DNA of 43,003 bases from a virus (lineage: Duplodnaviria > Caudoviricetes). Positions 1 to 43,003 of the stretch are shown in pieces. A model generated the notes under the pieces. The model ran no database searches and had not been told where the DNA came from. It saw nothing but the letters and a program-made list of their open reading frames with translations. Where the stretch lies: the IMG/VR virus record IMGVR_UViG_3300036833_000180, positions 1 to 43,003 of that record. One strand, given 5' to 3'. Within the stretch, counting starts at the first letter, position 1; each line of letters begins with the position of its first letter. The translations under genes were made by a program, and so were the position numbers.

Positions 1-126
1 CTGTTTTTCTGTGACCCCTTTACCTCCATCAACTCTCTCTGATATACAACCCTAGGTTGACAATTGTCAACCTAGGGTTGTATATCAGAGAGAGTTGATG
101 GAGGTAAAGGGGTCACAGAAAAACAG
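1..126. repeat. Perfect 126-bp palindrome at the contig end (candidate hairpin terminus or fold-back junction)
   Basis: Bases 1-63 are the exact reverse complement of 64-126; the centre is TTGACAATTGTCAA with the axis at 63/64. Confidence 0.95.
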
Positions 127-8365: not shown

Positions 8366-8415
8366 TCTTTAGACCCCCGAAAAGAAAAGTTCCCCACCCG
8401 CCCAAGGAGAGCAAA

Positions 8416-9015: not shown

Positions 9016-9142
9016 GATCGCGCAGCGTCCGAGAGACGTTCAAGCGGGGACCCTCCTAATGTATCACATTAACAGTGATACGTTAGCTACGTGTCTAGCA
9101 CGGCACGCATTCCATGTCAAGTGAAAAAGTTGGACGGACTAT
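9016..9142 (+). repeat. 127-bp inverted repeat, copy 1
   Basis: Exact reverse complement of 42877-43003. Confidence 0.95.
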
Positions 9143-9200: not shown

Positions 9201-9455
9201 ATGTCCAAGTGGGTCACATACCTGGCGGCGACGGCGTGGTGGTCGGTGATGCGGGCCGGCAACGAAAGCCTGGTCATCCTGTTCGTCATGATGCTGCTGC
9301 CGCTGTACATCATCAACTTCGACAGGAGACACCCCGATGAACATTTACCCCTTCGACCAAGTCGCCGCGCGGGTGGAAGAAATATTAAATGGCACATCTA
9401 CCGACGAACACTTCGTCGCCCTCAGAGCGCTTGCCGGCGGTGCGCCGAGGATTGA
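9201..9455 (+). CDS. Hypothetical membrane protein
   Basis: Hydrophobic N-terminal half, possibly leaderless after the promoter; the 3' part overlaps the next gene. Confidence 0.35.
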   Translation: MSKWVTYLAATAWWSVMRAGNESLVILFVMMLLPLYIINFDRRHPDEHLPLRPSRRAGGRNIKWHIYRRTLRRPQSACRRCAED

Positions 9456-11852: not shown

Positions 11853-12061
11853 TTAGCCAGTTCAGCGTCGGCACCAGCCGAACCATCAACCTGGGCAATT
11901 TCGAGAGCCTGCGGGTCGAGGCGTCGGTCACGATCGACTGCCCCGAGGATGGCGATTGGGTGCAGCTGCGGGCCGCGGCGCAAATCCAGCTACGCGAACT
12001 GCTGGAGGACACCTACCGGGCGCAGCATGAGGACCGCAGGAAGAAGCAGATCAGCGCATGA
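11849..12061 (+). CDS. Hypothetical protein
   Basis: RTINLGNFESLRVEA motif typical of small phage proteins; ATGA overlaps. Confidence 0.7.
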   Translation: MISQFSVGTSRTINLGNFESLRVEASVTIDCPEDGDWVQLRAAAQIQLRELLEDTYRAQHEDRRKKQISA

Positions 12062-12432
12062 ACCGGCTCAAGGAAATCAACGATGAGGTTTACGCCCGCT
12101 GGAAGGCCGGCGAAAACCATCTGGACTTGGCCGATGAATATGGCCGCTACGGTCTTGAGACACTGTTGCGGCGGCGGCTCTATGCCGAACAGCACGCCAA
12201 CGATCCGCGCGGTGAAAGCAACCAGGAAGCCCGCGCCCGAACCTGGCAGCGTAACGAGGATATCATTCTCAGCCGCGCCGCCGGCTCAACCTACAGCGCA
12301 TTGGCGCAAAAGTACGGCATCAGCCGCGAGCGGGTGCGGCAAATCTGGATGAAGCACTTGCGTAAGTCTCGCGATCCGCGTGGGCTCTATGGGCCGCGCC
12401 TCGCTGCTAAAATCAAACTGCGAAGAAACTAG
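12058..12432 (+). CDS. Sigma70 region-4-like HTH protein
   Basis: TYSALAQKYGISRERVRQI motif. Confidence 0.7.
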   Translation: MNRLKEINDEVYARWKAGENHLDLADEYGRYGLETLLRRRLYAEQHANDPRGESNQEARARTWQRNEDIILSRAAGSTYSALAQKYGISRERVRQIWMKHLRKSRDPRGLYGPRLAAKIKLRRN

Positions 12433-13405: not shown

Positions 13406-13828
13406 GTGGCTTTTTCGTTGCCAGAAGAATGGCGTGAAGTGCCAAGTGTTCCTGGCCTTCTTGCAAGCAGTGAGGGGTGCATTATGACCGCCCCTCATAC
13501 CAAACCTATGCCGCGAGGTGGGGAACGTACCTACGGTGGGAAGCCGTGGCTTGGCGCTTGGAGCAAAGAAGATAGCCGATACACCACCAGATTTCGCGGC
13601 AAGACTTATAGGGTTGCCCGATTGGTTTGTGAGGCATTTCACGGACCGCCGCCGTTTGTTGATGCAGTTGTCATGCACCTTAACGAAGATGGGTCCAACA
13701 ATTGGCCCGATAATCTTAGATGGGGGACGCAAAAGGAAAATCTGAACATGCCGTATTTTCTCGACTACTGCCGCAGCCGCACTGGCGAAAACAGTCCATC
13801 TGTAAAAGGCCGAAGGAGCAAGCCATGA
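13406..13828 (+). CDS. NUMOD4-HNH endonuclease
   Basis: EEWREVP...ASSEG N-terminus; VARLVCEAFHGPPP...VMHLNEDGSNNWPDNLRWGTQKEN. Confidence 0.85.
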   Translation: MAFSLPEEWREVPSVPGLLASSEGCIMTAPHTKPMPRGGERTYGGKPWLGAWSKEDSRYTTRFRGKTYRVARLVCEAFHGPPPFVDAVVMHLNEDGSNNWPDNLRWGTQKENLNMPYFLDYCRSRTGENSPSVKGRRSKP

Positions 13829-14118
13829 GCCTGCACAACAGCACGTTCCTGTATCTGAAGCCGACCGACAAGCAAATGGGCACGATGGATTTCGTCCGCG
13901 AAGCCTACGACAATTTCGCCAAAGTGCTGCAACAAAATTTGCCCGACGGCGCCGACAAGACCCACGTGCTGCGGCTCATTCGCACCGCGGCAATGTGGTC
14001 GCATGTTGCCATCACCCGCAATCAAGACGGCAGCCCGCGGGATGACATGACGCCGCCGAAACCGTTCGATCCGGGCGCGGATGCCGGCGCCTTCGCCTCG
14101 ATGGATGGCAAGCGGTGA
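13825..14118 (+). CDS. Acb2/Tad1-like helical-hairpin protein (possible nucleotide-signal sponge)
   Basis: F.YLKPTD.Q...M..VR....LPDGADKT.VLR..RTAAMW..VAITR pattern; AAGGAG RBS before ATG 13825. Confidence 0.5.
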   Translation: MSLHNSTFLYLKPTDKQMGTMDFVREAYDNFAKVLQQNLPDGADKTHVLRLIRTAAMWSHVAITRNQDGSPRDDMTPPKPFDPGADAGAFASMDGKR

Positions 14119-14479: not shown

Positions 14480-14731
14480 ATGAACGAGGATAGCAACGAC
14501 CGCCTGAAAAAGTTCGAGAGTGCACTGTCCGATCCGATCGCCAAGTTCATACCAAAATCCAGTCAGCCAAAGGCGGAGCCGACGGTGGCGGTGACCATCG
14601 CCGCGATCCGGGATCAAGCCCACACTATTCTCAAGATGTGCGAAGAGGCCGAGACTGCCATCAATGCCAGCGAGGACAGCGCCCGCAAGGCGGCCGACAG
14701 CCTGATGGACCTGATTAAGCGCGTTAAGTAG
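14480..14731 (+). CDS. Hypothetical coiled-coil protein
   Basis: ATG directly follows the upstream stop; helical pattern. Confidence 0.6.
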   Translation: MNEDSNDRLKKFESALSDPIAKFIPKSSQPKAEPTVAVTIAAIRDQAHTILKMCEEAETAINASEDSARKAADSLMDLIKRVK

Positions 14732-21788: not shown

Positions 21789-22247
21789 TTAAGTGCGTGA
21801 CCACTTACGCCATTGTTCGCGTTTCCGCTTGACTTCAGCCGCGAACCGCTTGGCTTCAGTCGCGAAACAGGCTTCGTCATCGTAAGATTGCTGTACTTGT
21901 GCGTAGTCCCAAAACGCTCGCGGTTGTTCGCCCAACGTCCTGCCCGGTGCGTAGTACTCAAACGGCATGATCGGCCATGCGAACGCAGCCACGGGCGACA
22001 GAACGAGCGCGGCTATTGTCATCGTTAGTGTCTTCATTTTGCTCTCCTCATGCGACATCACGTGGTGATCGGTCGACCGGACCATACCATTGTGGCGGCG
22101 GGTCCATTCTGGGTACCACATCAGTTGCTCGCTCCATCCGGCGACGAGATGAGGCCATGGCTGCAGTGGCATGAGCTTTTGTACTGCTATGACAACAAAT
22201 AAGATCGAGAATGCTGCGATCCCGATCCAGATGGGATTGACTTTCAT
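21789..22247 (-). CDS. Moron-like membrane or secreted protein(s); second in-frame start at 22037
   Basis: AGGAGAGCAAAA precedes both ATG 22247 (TM N-terminus) and ATG 22037 (signal peptide MKTLTMTIAALVLSPVAAFA). Confidence 0.6.
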   Translation of the reverse strand: MKVNPIWIGIAAFSILFVVIAVQKLMPLQPWPHLVAGWSEQLMWYPEWTRRHNGMVRSTDHHVMSHEESKMKTLTMTIAALVLSPVAAFAWPIMPFEYYAPGRTLGEQPRAFWDYAQVQQSYDDEACFATEAKRFAAEVKRKREQWRKWSRT

Positions 22248-22278
22248 TTTTGCTCTCCTTTGGTTTTACTTTAAAGGC

Positions 22279-37493: not shown

Positions 37494-39290
37494 TCAAAAC
37501 CTGTCCTTATGCTCACGCGACTTGCGATTGATCATTGCCATGTGCTGGCTGAATGCGAATGACAGCACCGTGCCGACGTTCTGCGGCGGCCGGTCGCCCT
37601 TCACACTATCCCACGTGAGATTGCGAGCCACCAGCATAGGCCGACGCCACTCAATCCAAGCATGATGGGCCAGAACGAGTGCAGAAACCAGATCATCGTT
37701 CTCTCCGGTATCAGGTCCGGCACCGATCCAGCCGTCGTCTTCAACGATGCTTTGCATTTGCGCTATTAGTTTCGGCGAGCGCACTTCCAACCGCCGCAGC
37801 ATCAGACTGTCTCGCAGCTCCGAATAGACCTGATGCTTATTGTCAGAATTTGCCTTCCATGCAATTACGTTTCCGGCTCCACCTAATGTGTCGGGTCTTT
37901 TGTACAGGAACCAACGCACTGCTCCAATCATATTCAGGATGTTTTCTGTTCCCGGCTCCCCTTGCAGAATGCCGCGTTCCGCTAATTGACGGAGGTTTCT
38001 CACTTCAGGCAAAACAGCCGCACCCACCCCCGTCACTTCCAGATTGGCTATGTGATCCTTGTACGCGCCCGCTAGGTGCGCCAGCACCCACGCTAATTGA
38101 TAGGTCAACGGCTTATTCGACTGAAACTCCGCGATCTGAACCACCTTATCAGCATAGCAACGCAGCACTTGGATGGCGTGGTCATCACTTTCGCCGCCAC
38201 CGCCACCGGATGGATCAACACCAATGACGTAATGACCGGTGGGTTCGGGCGGCTCCCAGACTTTGAGCATGGCGTCATCGGGCTTGCTCACTTGTTCAAT
38301 GCGGCTGGCCAAGAATTTGTCGTCGAAAATGTATCTGTAGCCTTTGTAGGGTGGCCCGACCGGCGACAGCTGCTCGGAGATTTCCAGGGTCCGCGCCGCC
38401 GGGAAAAAGCCGGAACCGGAGGCGATGAAGCATTCGCGCTCATGCCAAGGAAAATGTCTTAACATATATTCTTCGGCTTTGAATTCGGCTTCGCGTCGCC
38501 ACCACGCGATCTGTTCCGGCCTGATGATGACTTTGTAATTGTCCTTGACGTATCTGGCGCGGTTAATCTCCTCAACCGTCAACCGGCCGTCCCAATAGGT
38601 CTTGTAGTCGGGATCGTCTTTGGCAATGGCGTAGGTCGGGTTGGCCCAGAAGCCGATAAAAATAAATCGCATATGCCTGTCAAGTTTTGCCTGTTGACAG
38701 TGGTTGTAGTACCAGTTGAAGCCGGAGGCGATGCTTTCCCAGATGTAAAGCCGATGCGGGTTTTGTCGCGCCAGCGACGCCTTCAAGCTCTCGACACCGG
38801 CCAAGGACTTCCATTGCGCGCATTCGGTCGCGTGCATCATGTTCAATGCCCGCGACGCGCCCAGGTCCGGATTAGACGCCGCAGCCATAAGGTCAATGAC
38901 GCTGCGGTTGGCGAACGCCATGCCGGAGCGGTTATTCTGAATGAGTTGATGTTCGGGGGATCGCCACTCAGGCGGTAACGTCTCCAATAGACTTCCGAAA
39001 ATTCTGCGCAGACGTTCCAAATTGTCGGTACGGTCGGCAATGATGGCTCCCTGAACGCCGGGGTTGGCGAGTGCCCAGAATAATTCTATTACACTACAGA
39101 CTGTGGTGATGGCGACCTGGCGGCACTTCAAGACGACAAATTCATGAACCCCTTCGTTGAGCCCGCGCGCCACCGCGTCAATGACAATGCGCTGTGACGG
39201 CCACGGCTCAATGCGGCAGCGGCCTTCTTCCTTAGTGTCAATGGAGACACTGGTTAGAAGATCATAAATTCCCTGTCTGATCGTTGGAAT
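37494..39290 (-). CDS. terL: Terminase large subunit (5' end extended to a probable ATT start)
   Basis: VVLKCRQVAITT Walker A variant, MHATECAQW Walker B, WESIASG, YVIGVDPSGG and NDDLVSAL nuclease motifs; the frame is open 39 codons upstream of GTG 39173. Confidence 0.88.
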   Translation of the reverse strand: MPTIRQGIYDLLTSVSIDTKEEGRCRIEPWPSQRIVIDAVARGLNEGVHEFVVLKCRQVAITTVCSVIELFWALANPGVQGAIIADRTDNLERLRRIFGSLLETLPPEWRSPEHQLIQNNRSGMAFANRSVIDLMAAASNPDLGASRALNMMHATECAQWKSLAGVESLKASLARQNPHRLYIWESIASGFNWYYNHCQQAKLDRHMRFIFIGFWANPTYAIAKDDPDYKTYWDGRLTVEEINRARYVKDNYKVIIRPEQIAWWRREAEFKAEEYMLRHFPWHERECFIASGSGFFPAARTLEISEQLSPVGPPYKGYRYIFDDKFLASRIEQVSKPDDAMLKVWEPPEPTGHYVIGVDPSGGGGGESDDHAIQVLRCYADKVVQIAEFQSNKPLTYQLAWVLAHLAGAYKDHIANLEVTGVGAAVLPEVRNLRQLAERGILQGEPGTENILNMIGAVRWFLYKRPDTLGGAGNVIAWKANSDNKHQVYSELRDSLMLRRLEVRSPKLIAQMQSIVEDDGWIGAGPDTGENDDLVSALVLAHHAWIEWRRPMLVARNLTWDSVKGDRPPQNVGTVLSFAFSQHMAMINRKSREHKDRF

Positions 39291-39492
39291 AGGTCACCCC
39301 ATGATGGACTCCGGGCCGGGGAAAGATACCGTACCCGTCACCGTCGCGTCTATGCCAGCGGCCGCTTAGGTAAATGCGAGAGGGCGGGTCGGTACTGCGG
39401 ACGGGCGGTGGGGATGATGGCGGCTTGAGACTGTCCAGCGTTTGATTGAGGCGCTCAAGTTCCCTGACGATGGCGTCGAACTGCTGGTCCAT
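39262..39492 (-). CDS. Hypothetical protein upstream of the terminase
   Basis: GAGGG RBS; N-terminal coiled coil; overlaps the extended terminase 5' end. Confidence 0.5.
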   Translation of the reverse strand: MDQQFDAIVRELERLNQTLDSLKPPSSPPPVRSTDPPSRIYLSGRWHRRDGDGYGIFPRPGVHHGVTYSNDQTGNL

Positions 39493-39528
39493 TTGCGGGT
39501 TCCCTCTGCTATGTTATATACTGCCCGT

Positions 39529-39606
39529 GTCTCCTATCCAGTAGGGTACTTGGGTCTTGAGCCGCCGGGCGCGAAGTTGCTCTCCTCGCCCGGCGGTTCT
39601 TTTTTT
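39529..39606 (+). ncRNA. Candidate small RNA with an anti-RBS loop (UUGCUCUCCU)
   Basis: Upstream TTGCGG-N18-TATACT; 13-bp stem 39559-39571/39587-39599 followed by T7; the loop is complementary to AGGAGAGCAA. Confidence 0.5.
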
Positions 39607-39830: not shown

Positions 39831-39966
39831 TTTTGCTCTCCATGATCTTGCCTTACTTTAGTCTAAAATTTTTTTTTGACTTTTTTTATTTATTTGGTCA
39901 CTTTTTGTTCCGTCGGGGGTATGGGGGATGGCGGGCCGCGCGGCAATCGCGGCCCGCTGTTGTTAA

Positions 39967-40494: not shown

Positions 40495-40612
40495 TGTGCT
40501 CTCCACGATTTTGGTTTAGTCCGTGGGTCGGCATTCTTGAACCGGACAAGCGGCTACCTGAGACCGGCAGAATGCCTTTCGGCTCGGACGCCCACGGTCG
40601 CCCGATAAGTAA

Positions 40613-40641
40613 AGTTTAATTCTTGGACATGAGGGCGTCAA
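40613..40641 (-). promoter_or_regulatory. Sigma70-like promoter
   Basis: TTGACG-N17-TAAACT on the - strand. Confidence 0.6.
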
Positions 40642-40665
40642 GAGGAAACTCGCGACGCCCTTTTT
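40632..40665 (+). terminator. Hairpin plus T-run (possibly bidirectional terminator) overlapping the -35 box
   Basis: AGGGCGTC...GACGCCCT followed by TTTT. Confidence 0.45.
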
Positions 40666-40866: not shown

Positions 40867-40894
40867 TGTCTGCTCTCCTCGTTGTCGCGTTTCA

Positions 40895-40943
40895 TGAACG
40901 CGGCAAAACGGCGGGATCGCTCCCGCCGCTTCGCTCTCGTTCA
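40895..40943 (-). repeat. Intergenic hairpin repeat type A, copy 1
   Basis: TGAACG-AGA-GCGAAGCGG...CCGTTTTGC-CG-CGTTCA on the - strand. Confidence 0.85.
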
Positions 40944-41087: not shown

Positions 41088-41197
41088 AGTTGCTCTCCAT
41101 CGCGTTCGAAGTGGATTGACGCCACAGCCGGAACGCAATCGTGCTGTGGGAAAAGACGGCTGATGACGTGGTTGTTGGCTCGCCGTTTCGTTCTCGT

Positions 41198-41407: not shown

Positions 41408-41431
41408 TTGTTTGCTCTCCTCTAATCTCGT

Positions 41432-41668: not shown

Positions 41669-41701
41669 TTTGGTTTGCTCTCCTCTTGTTCGCGTCATCA
41701 A

Positions 41702-41751
41702 TGAACGCGGCAAAACGGGGCGCAACGCGCGTCCCGTTTCGCTCTCATTCA
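41702..41751 (-). repeat. Intergenic hairpin repeat type A, copy 2
   Basis: Near-identical to 42157-42206. Confidence 0.85.
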
Positions 41752-41832: not shown

Positions 41833-42141
41833 TTAACTAAAGTAAGTTCCGCAAACTACGCGCTCGAAACTGTCAACGTAGCGGAACACAACGCCGCTAA
41901 AGTAACTGTCGCTGACAATGCCATGCCACTTGCAGAATTTTGGTTCGTGTCGCGCGTAGTCGTCAATCCGCTCAACGTCACTCAAGTCGTAAACCCAAGC
42001 GCGATAGCGAACGAATGAGCGTTCCATTTGCTTGTCTTCCGTGTCCAGATAGTCAAACTCCGCGCGCTCCTTGTCGGTCAACTCATACCAGCGCAAAAGA
42101 TTGCGCGGCACGTTGTTTGTTTTGATCGTAAGCTCACCCAT
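41833..42141 (-). CDS. Hypothetical early protein
   Basis: GAGGAGAGCAAAATG start; IKTNNVPR...EFDYLD...WHG..SDSYFSG. Confidence 0.75.
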   Translation of the reverse strand: MGELTIKTNNVPRNLLRWYELTDKERAEFDYLDTEDKQMERSFVRYRAWVYDLSDVERIDDYARHEPKFCKWHGIVSDSYFSGVVFRYVDSFERVVCGTYFS

Positions 42142-42156
42142 TTTGCTCTCCTCTCA

Positions 42157-42206
42157 TGAACGCGGCAAAACGGAGCGCAACGCGCGCCCCGTTTCGCTCT
42201 CGTTCA
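42157..42206 (-). repeat. Intergenic hairpin repeat type A, copy 3
   Basis: TGAACGAGAGCGAAACGGGGCGCGCGTTGCGCTCCGTTTTGCCGCGTTCA on the - strand. Confidence 0.85.
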
Positions 42207-42328: not shown

Positions 42329-42381
42329 TTGATTGCTCTCCTCAGTAACAGACGCGCGGTGCGCGCGTCCGGCATTGAGGA
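42324..42381 (-). repeat. 58-bp direct repeat type B (RBS-sequestering hairpin), copy 1
   Basis: Near-identical to 42605-42662; TCCTCA pairs with TGAGGA. Confidence 0.9.
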
Positions 42382-42411
42382 GATACGGGGCGCATGTTGC
42401 GCCCCGTGCGT

Positions 42412-42609: not shown

Positions 42610-42662
42610 TTGATTGCTCTCCTCAGTAACAGACGCACGCTACGCGCGTCCGACATTGAGGA
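42605..42662 (-). repeat. 58-bp direct repeat type B, copy 2
   Basis: See 42324-42381. Confidence 0.9.
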
Positions 42663-42803
42663 GGAGAAGCTTCGCCCGGATTGCGTGAGTTACGGTGGGA
42701 GGTTGTTTATCGTTGACCCTGCGGCCACGGTTACCGGGCGACACGACAGGCCGGAGCACCGCGCGTACCTGCTAGCGCCTACGTTTCCGCTCTAGCAATT
42801 CCA

Positions 42804-42876: not shown

Positions 42877-43003
42877 ATAGTCCGTCCAACTTTTTCACTT
42901 GACATGGAATGCGTGCCGTGCTAGACACGTAGCTAACGTATCACTGTTAATGTGATACATTAGGAGGGTCCCCGCTTGAACGTCTCTCGGACGCTGCGCG
43001 ATC
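42877..43003 (-). repeat. 127-bp inverted repeat, copy 2 (runs to the contig end)
   Basis: Exact reverse complement of 9016-9142. Confidence 0.95.

Follow-up and report, generated by a model that had tools for sequence, protein, structure and literature searches.

To our knowledge, each of the antisense RNAs known from phages has a single gene or operon as its target, and the shut-off of early genes is usually attributed to proteins. Among the closest described systems, C4 of phages P1 and P7 (RF01695) is a phage RNA of ~77 nt whose loops pair with the ribosome-binding regions of phage mRNA, its specificity being set by changes in the loop and target sequences (accessible text of PMC5320573 and PMC12197685). 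According to the accessible text of PMC4152367, AbcR1 and AbcR2 of the Rhizobiales carry two single-stranded anti-Shine-Dalgarno modules that address many mRNAs; OOP, aQ and P22 sar of lambdoid phages are short antisense units with their own promoter, embedded in an operon (PMC12197685, accessible text). A further precedent is provided by the start-associated sequences (SAS) of cluster K mycobacteriophages—a conserved, AGGAG-containing tag located 3-7 nt before the starts of non-structural genes, which includes bases unable to pair with 16S rRNA and whose partner was left open as 'RNA or protein' in the accessible text of PMC3203893. In four cluster K genomes, the same text describes one SAS copy in opposite orientation that is not tied to a start.

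The locus analyzed here lies in a virus record of 43,003 bases (CheckV completeness 86%), the whole of which is referred to as the window. We lean towards reading it as a promoter-leader-terminator unit for a predicted 80-nt antisense RNA, which would act in trans to block the translation of tagged early genes. By analogy, the unit would work like C4 or AbcR1, and it belongs to neither family: no Rfam family reached its gathering score in the window, C4 was not among the six weak hits up to E 10, and the Rfam models for AbcR1/2 and cuckoo-type alphaproteobacterial sRNAs gave no match. As in C4, loop and target change together between phages, with the strictest test of this being borderline. 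However, C4 has three stem-loops, derives from a precursor cut by RNase P and controls the ant mRNA, whereas our unit comes with a promoter and terminator of its own and has a single stem, and its putative targets are about 12 unrelated genes reached via a shared tag. C4 controls an antirepressor operon and immunity; among the tagged genes scanned here, none was named as an antirepressor. Like the AbcR RNAs, the unit has two single-stranded anti-Shine-Dalgarno motifs, but those RNAs are chromosomal and act on transporter mRNAs, whereas this one is phage-encoded and its putative targets are the phage's own genes, carrying a private Shine-Dalgarno extension that changes with the seed. OOP, aQ and sar each act on one overlapping gene with full complementarity; the predicted transcript in the window, in contrast, overlaps no coding sequence and no ribosome site. 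Plasmid ctRNA (RF00236), a countertranscript to the rep leader, remained below the gathering score (17.8 bits vs 45, E 0.3); the neighbors of the unit are the terminase and genes of no assigned function. Finally, compared with SAS, the phages are unrelated and the sequence is different; no partner RNA is proposed for SAS in the accessible text of PMC3203893, whereas here the tag has a candidate partner RNA that comes with a promoter, a terminator and covariation.

Architecture and conservation of the unit

The gene content of the window includes a terminase, a major head protein, a primase, an exonuclease, an endolysin and a tail fibre. An array of short genes of unassigned function on the minus strand (~42610-39615), which we consider putative early genes from their position and size, extends from the contig end and leads into a 76-aa gene (39262-39492, minus strand; SGRW-RRDG motif family, with no PHROG, Pfam or Atlas assignment) and then into the gene for the terminase large subunit (37494-39290, minus strand; phrog_2, E 2e-16), both of them untagged. 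The terminase probably starts with ATT (39290-39288, minus strand), a register taken from homologs that have ATG, GTG or TTG there, or likewise ATT in the case of L012.

On the plus strand, the promoter-like pair TTGCGG-N18-TATACT, the 13-bp stem and the T7 tail of the original prediction were all located. The -35-like box TTGCGG (39493-39498) abuts the start codon of the divergent 76-aa gene, and the -10-like box (39515-39522) can be read as TATACT (39517-39522, 18-nt spacer) or, equally well, as TATATA (39515-39520, 16 nt), with GCTATA-type boxes in homologs. The predicted small RNA of ~80 nt (39527-39606), its 5' end placed according to the promoter, opens with the anti-Shine-Dalgarno stretch GTGTCTCCT (39527-39535), which contains the second TCTCCT expected at the 5' end (39530-39535) and corresponds to the position of the early-tag-matching seed in other lineages. 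It continues with a conserved TTGGGT (39550-39555; loose form in 40/66 elements), a 13-bp terminator stem (39559-39599; arms 39559-39571 and 39587-39599) enclosing a 15-nt loop (39572-39586) with the seed TTGCTCTCCT, complementary to the start-site tag, and the U7 tail of an intrinsic terminator (39600-39606), as read from the sequence. As in trans-acting base-pairing sRNAs generally, the unit stands alone, with its own promoter and intrinsic terminator and without a reading frame. TTGGGT could possibly act as a third seed against ACCCAA spacers or as a chaperone site: it matches the start of a 58-aa gene family over 8-11 nt in four of ten phages, the match in the window being just 5 nt. The 5' TCTCCT of the window has one 9-nt match, at the start at 9337, and no clear target set. 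A two-site match to that start (9 nt from the leader plus 8 nt from the loop) was treated as chance, because the loop contributes a net +3.5 kcal/mol and the orthologs in G003-G005 have no 8-nt match. A second terminator-like hairpin on the plus strand lies inside the early array (~40631-40662), overlapped by a promoter-like site on the minus strand (40641-40613).

The plus strand folds at -39.6 kcal/mol (z -3.9), with none of 200 shuffles equally stable, and the minus strand at -34.7 kcal/mol (z -4.3); since the minus strand folds too, the strand cannot be told from folding alone. In the predicted fold, three weak pairs form within the 15-nt loop, where opening the seed costs 3.3 kcal/mol, and the two single-stranded CTCC motifs open at costs of 2.9 and 3.3 kcal/mol. 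The stem of the window has one G-U pair, which exists on the plus strand only, as originally described; across relatives there are 38 G-U pairs in 24 of 40 stems, a count that is partly circular as the stems were defined on that strand.

These observations bear on a different reading, in which the tag is a protein-binding site—for a translational regulator or as a DNA operator—and the minus-strand hairpin loop acts as a decoy or further site. The minus strand is nearly as stable when folded, CsrA-type sites are marked by a GGA in a loop, and the accessible text of Pope et al. left both protein and RNA binding open for SAS tags (PMC3203893). However, promoter and U tail face the plus strand, with a mean of 5.75 T behind the stem vs 1.1 A ahead of it (40 elements; a contrast partly built into element selection). 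Moreover, the minus-strand copy lies in no hairpin in lineages where the leader carries the seed, and the tag switches sides of GGAG between close relatives, a change that is easy for pairing but hard for one protein. The direction of promoter and U tail favors an antisense RNA, and the decoy for a GGA-binding protein raised as an alternative in the original prediction is disfavored; we regard a protein site as very unlikely.

To follow the unit in relatives, terminase searches yielded 75, 66 and 80 loci with partial overlap. Of the first 75 loci, 63 had upstream sequence, and an antisense terminator unit was picked by hand in 43 of them and in the window; a fixed rule found the unit in 28 of 75 further loci, and L019 has the unit but was missed by the rule. 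A homolog of the 76-aa gene follows the unit in 55 of 72 elements, the remainder preceding other genes (10 elements, which may not be homologous) or lacking a call (7). In 47 of 55 elements, mostly those preceding the 76-aa gene family, a TTG hexamer lies 16-18 nt ahead of an independently scored -10 box, and in none at a spacing of 12-15 or 19-23 nt. This TTG abuts the neighbor's start codon in many elements and falls inside the neighbor's first codons in L036, L038, L042, L066, L115 and L188, suggesting that the promoter is kept for its own sake. The consensus fold of 20 sequences contains one conserved stem, with double-sided changes in five of nine pairs.

An exact 22-nt search of viral contigs gave no hit, a gapped hairpin pattern returned two contigs already in the set, and the covariance model (28 hits to E 1, 99 sources) found one copy in the window and a convincing second copy in none of five other genome segments. 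A distant lineage (L059, L176, L177 and L178) has a different conserved leader, consisting of a hairpin followed by a CGTCTGAC motif, which matches none of that lineage's early starts.

Tagged start sites in the window

The motif occurs in the window 14 times with at most one mismatch, against 1.8 +/- 1.3 expected. Nine copies are exact (eight ahead of an ATG plus the loop copy), and with the near copies at 39833, 40870, 41090 and 40496 there are 12 tagged start sites—in line with the roughly 12 genes that had been proposed to share a tag complementary to the loop. Nine belong to the early array, all on the minus strand: exact tags precede a 65-aa gene (42614-42623), a 22-codon gene remnant (42333-42342), a 102-aa gene (phrog_1845; 42143-42152), a 78-aa gene (41675-41684) and a 69-aa gene (41412-41421), near-exact tags precede a 48-aa gene (41090-41099), a 64-aa gene (40870-40879) and the last array gene (71 aa, 39830-39615; tag at 39833-39842), and an 8-nt match lies ahead of a 56-aa gene (40496-40505). 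Elsewhere, exact tags precede a 167-aa gene after the primase (8405-8414, plus strand) and two small genes within the structural module (22250-22259 and 22039-22048, minus strand). Three of the 12 (8405 on the plus strand, 22250 and 22039 on the minus strand) are thus not part of the early array, a small correction to the original description. Similarly, the loop had been called the only copy without a start, which is correct among exact copies, but a one-mismatch copy at 14487 (plus strand) is startless as well.

With the opening costs of both RNAs counted, net pairing of the loop amounts to -7.3 to -14.5 kcal/mol at 10 of the 12 tagged starts, compared with -6.0 to +6.6 kcal/mol at 17 untagged positions (starts were taken from the ORF list, and one of these 17 is not a start). 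At the other two tagged starts, those of the 65-aa gene and the 22-codon remnant, the tag is predicted to be buried in an mRNA hairpin and net pairing is -1.6 kcal/mol. The hairpins concerned (~42610-42670 and 42330-42385, minus strand) are long and near-identical, have an opening cost of 14 kcal/mol and resemble RNase III-type processing hairpins. Repeated intergenic hairpin cassettes also stand ahead of tagged starts at 40873-40943, 41680-41751 and 42135-42206 (D16, D17). The tagged 22-codon frame (42329-42261, minus strand) is similar to the N-terminus of a family of 288-aa proteins, intact in relatives, and, by this likeness, is a gene remnant; the two small tagged genes at 21789-22259 (minus strand) have hydrophobic N-termini and possibly form a separately expressed accessory cassette.

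Selection on the loop and seed-tag covariation

In a quick terminase tree, the window falls into a 19-member clade with a support of 98. The loop 7-mer GCTCTCC is intact in 18 of the 19 members, while clade members differ in how long the 5' half of the loop is and in its sequence. At fourfold sites, mean identity to the window is 47% and 1 of 148 columns is invariant across 17 members, which were chosen for having the motif. Loop conservation, put forward as a test in the original prediction, thus extends far beyond that of neutral sites. The exception is L014, where the loop motif is lost and no GGAGAGC occurs upstream of the terminase; its starts read AGTGGAG instead, and the L014 5' leader complements them. 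Judged from its sequence, the unit is real, conserved and under selection.

Covariation of the loop with the ribosome-site motif had been suggested as a further check, and we find that seeds track the tag of their own phage. The fraction of early starts with a perfect complement of at least 8 nt was 0.33 for a phage's own RNA vs 0.15 for the RNAs of other phages (25 loci, p 5e-5; double-centred permutation over loci with a good -10 box and at least six starts, leaving out 19 of 44). For loop and leader taken together, the effect was found inside the clade (17 loci, p 1e-4; without L014, p 0.001 or lower, and p 0.04 for the loop alone), outside the clade (16 loci, p 1e-4) and in held-out loci (15 of 28, some being close kin of the first set; p 1e-4). 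Controls in the wrong orientation (p 0.31 and 0.09) and with stem arms (p 0.71) were null, and random segments of the same genomes (12 draws) gave centred scores within 0.05 vs 0.63. Among 87 orthologous starts in 10 families the combined p was 2e-4, with six families under 0.05 and no signal in the other four. Matches were also concentrated among early starts: 119 of 448 vs 13 of 583 downstream of the terminase (40 loci) and, in 17 loop-bearing loci, 100 of 195 vs 4 of 214 among packaging and capsid starts, with start lists drawn up by a simple rule that includes false starts.

Which side of GGAG the tags have in common depends on the seed: the 3' side in lineages with a loop seed, the 5' side in those with a leader seed. 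For instance, the L007 leader matches CTGTGGAGA at three starts, the L041 loop matches AAAAGGAGAG at two starts, and the L188 leader matches ACAAGTGGAG over up to 16 nt and finds CAAGTGGAG-type sites at seven upstream starts. The leaders of L060 and L064 each find five starts with AGTGGAGA-type sites, although one of the five in L064 is a different match; further lineage matches were found in L145 (14 nt), L115 (11 nt) and L039 (loop, 11 nt). Since the tag and its mirror change together between lineages, one RNA likely silences the whole gene set.

Several results point the other way. The contrast of independent sister pairs is the strictest test, and it is borderline: among 23 pairs (47 loci), 12 were positive, 6 negative and 5 zero (sign p 0.12, Wilcoxon p 0.045; control 8 and 6), with a few pairs carrying the result and ties arising because close sisters share seeds. 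Seed deviations showed no excess of wobble-compatible changes, as transitions that keep a G-U pair made up 120 of 292 (A) and 16 of 93 (C), and those breaking the pair 49 of 105 (G) and 9 of 29 (T). A match of at least 8 nt was absent in L010, L021, L037, L042, L052, L055, L059 and L075, and one of at least 7 nt in L094, L178 and L184, so that at least 11 elements have no visible target within the sequence examined. In the window, the two tags predicted to be buried, the three tags outside the early array and the lack of a clear target set for the 5' seed also count against the reading. What had looked like a compensatory change between L006 and L139 proved not to be one. We rate the covariation as good, though short of decisive, and as complementarity here equals a direct repeat on the mRNA strand, RNA pairing is not provable from sequence alone.

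The main rival draws on several of these results. It holds that the element is an insulating antisense terminator or a cis-antisense RNA between the early array and the packaging operon. The tag copy in it would have been spread by the shuffling of cassettes, as a relic or as a handle for recombination. The longer cassette repeats in the early array (D16, D17), the overlap of the promoter with the start region of the 76-aa gene, the persistence of the element in lineages with no visible target, the negative wobble test and the borderline sister-pair test are all in its favor. A relic, however, would leave unexplained the seven invariant bases and a match found in the loop in some lineages and in the leader in others. 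The 7-mer has stayed the same despite drift at synonymous sites and in the 5' half of the loop, and the copy comes without shared cassette flanks, having only 7-16 nt in common. The copy moreover occupies unpaired stretches at two positions, each matching the lineage's shared side of GGAG. An ATG lies behind just 4 of 69 GGAG copies within elements, a count that also led us to reject a leader-peptide reading. We regard insulation as unlikely, and pairing in trans as likely. As the RNA is fully complementary to a read-through transcript across 39527-39606, a cis effect is also possible and may ride along with trans action.

Proposed mechanism and genomic setting

In the trans-acting reading, the host sigma70 polymerase would make an RNA of 80 nt that ends at its own terminator. 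Its seed—the terminator loop in the window's clade, the 5' leader in other lineages—would anneal to tagged mRNAs along 8-11 nt that span the Shine-Dalgarno sequence and the spacer and, to judge from the position of the pairing and the mode of C4 and AbcR1, exclude the 30S subunit from tagged starts. As the RNA builds up during infection, early proteins would be made first and then shut off, with untagged late mRNAs being spared. Such a role as a lytic timer from early to late expression seems rather probable, 'early' and the timing being taken from gene position.

The same pairing could alternatively serve to maintain a carrier or lysogenic state, with the RNA as a repressor that also bars superinfection by phages with the same tag, as in C4. 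The constitutive-looking sigma70 promoter is consistent with this view, and the lineage-specific seed/tag pairs resemble the P1/P7 heteroimmunity of C4 in the accessible text of PMC5320573 and PMC12197685. Against it, neither a tyrosine integrase nor a protelomerase was found in any of five near-full records (45-86% complete; serine integrases lay outside the search), and a GTDB genome scan (28 candidate stretches) returned no terminase relative. The lack of these enzymes in the five incomplete records favors the lytic timer over immunity, which we hold to be quite improbable. A last possibility is that host takeover is the main task of the RNA, which would silence host mRNAs carrying sites of the GGAGAG type, phage matches being incidental. 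AbcR1 sets a precedent, with CU-rich seeds addressing dozens of mRNAs (PMC4152367, accessible text), but seeds fit the starts of their own phage better than those of relatives, and self-matching would be selected against; host silencing as the main role is highly improbable.

Returning to the trans-acting timer, we consider it just about probable that these phages mark a gene class with a private ribosome-site barcode and control it through one co-evolving antisense RNA—an RNA-only master switch acting in the early-to-late transition or in immunity. If true, one RNA reading a co-evolving tag on a dozen unrelated genes would constitute a new control layer, for which a literature search (main texts, with few subscription papers) turned up no published one-to-many case. 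The seed would then predict which genes of unassigned function are co-regulated, and the unit could offer a compact orthogonal switch for synthetic biology. A barcode RNA would also supply the missing partner for SAS-type tags, e.g., in cluster K mycobacteriophages; in any event, the unit makes the question of what binds start-associated sequences, as posed in the accessible text of Pope et al. (2011, PMC3203893), directly testable.

As regards the host, the promoter conforms to CTTGAC-N17-CTATAT, the sigma70 consensus of S. meliloti (PMC2873474, accessible text); an alphaproteobacterium is only a guess from promoter shape. No close isolated phage relative was found, the best match being 37%. 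The contig end at the early array (42877-43003) is an exact inverted copy of an internal segment (9016-9142). An inverted end copy of 45-127 bp is present in all five near-full records (the window, G001, G002, G003 and G005), with its internal partner ~8-11 kb from the opposite end in each, and a perfect 126-bp palindrome opens the window (1-126). This arrangement points to long inverted terminal repeats or to a segment that can invert; it may also be an effect of assembly. Finally, the window contains an Acb2/Tad1-like anti-defence domain under the Pfam cut-off (13720-14118, plus strand; E 9e-5) and a helix-turn-helix protein of the Mor/sigma70-region-4 type (12058-12432, plus strand), a candidate late activator.
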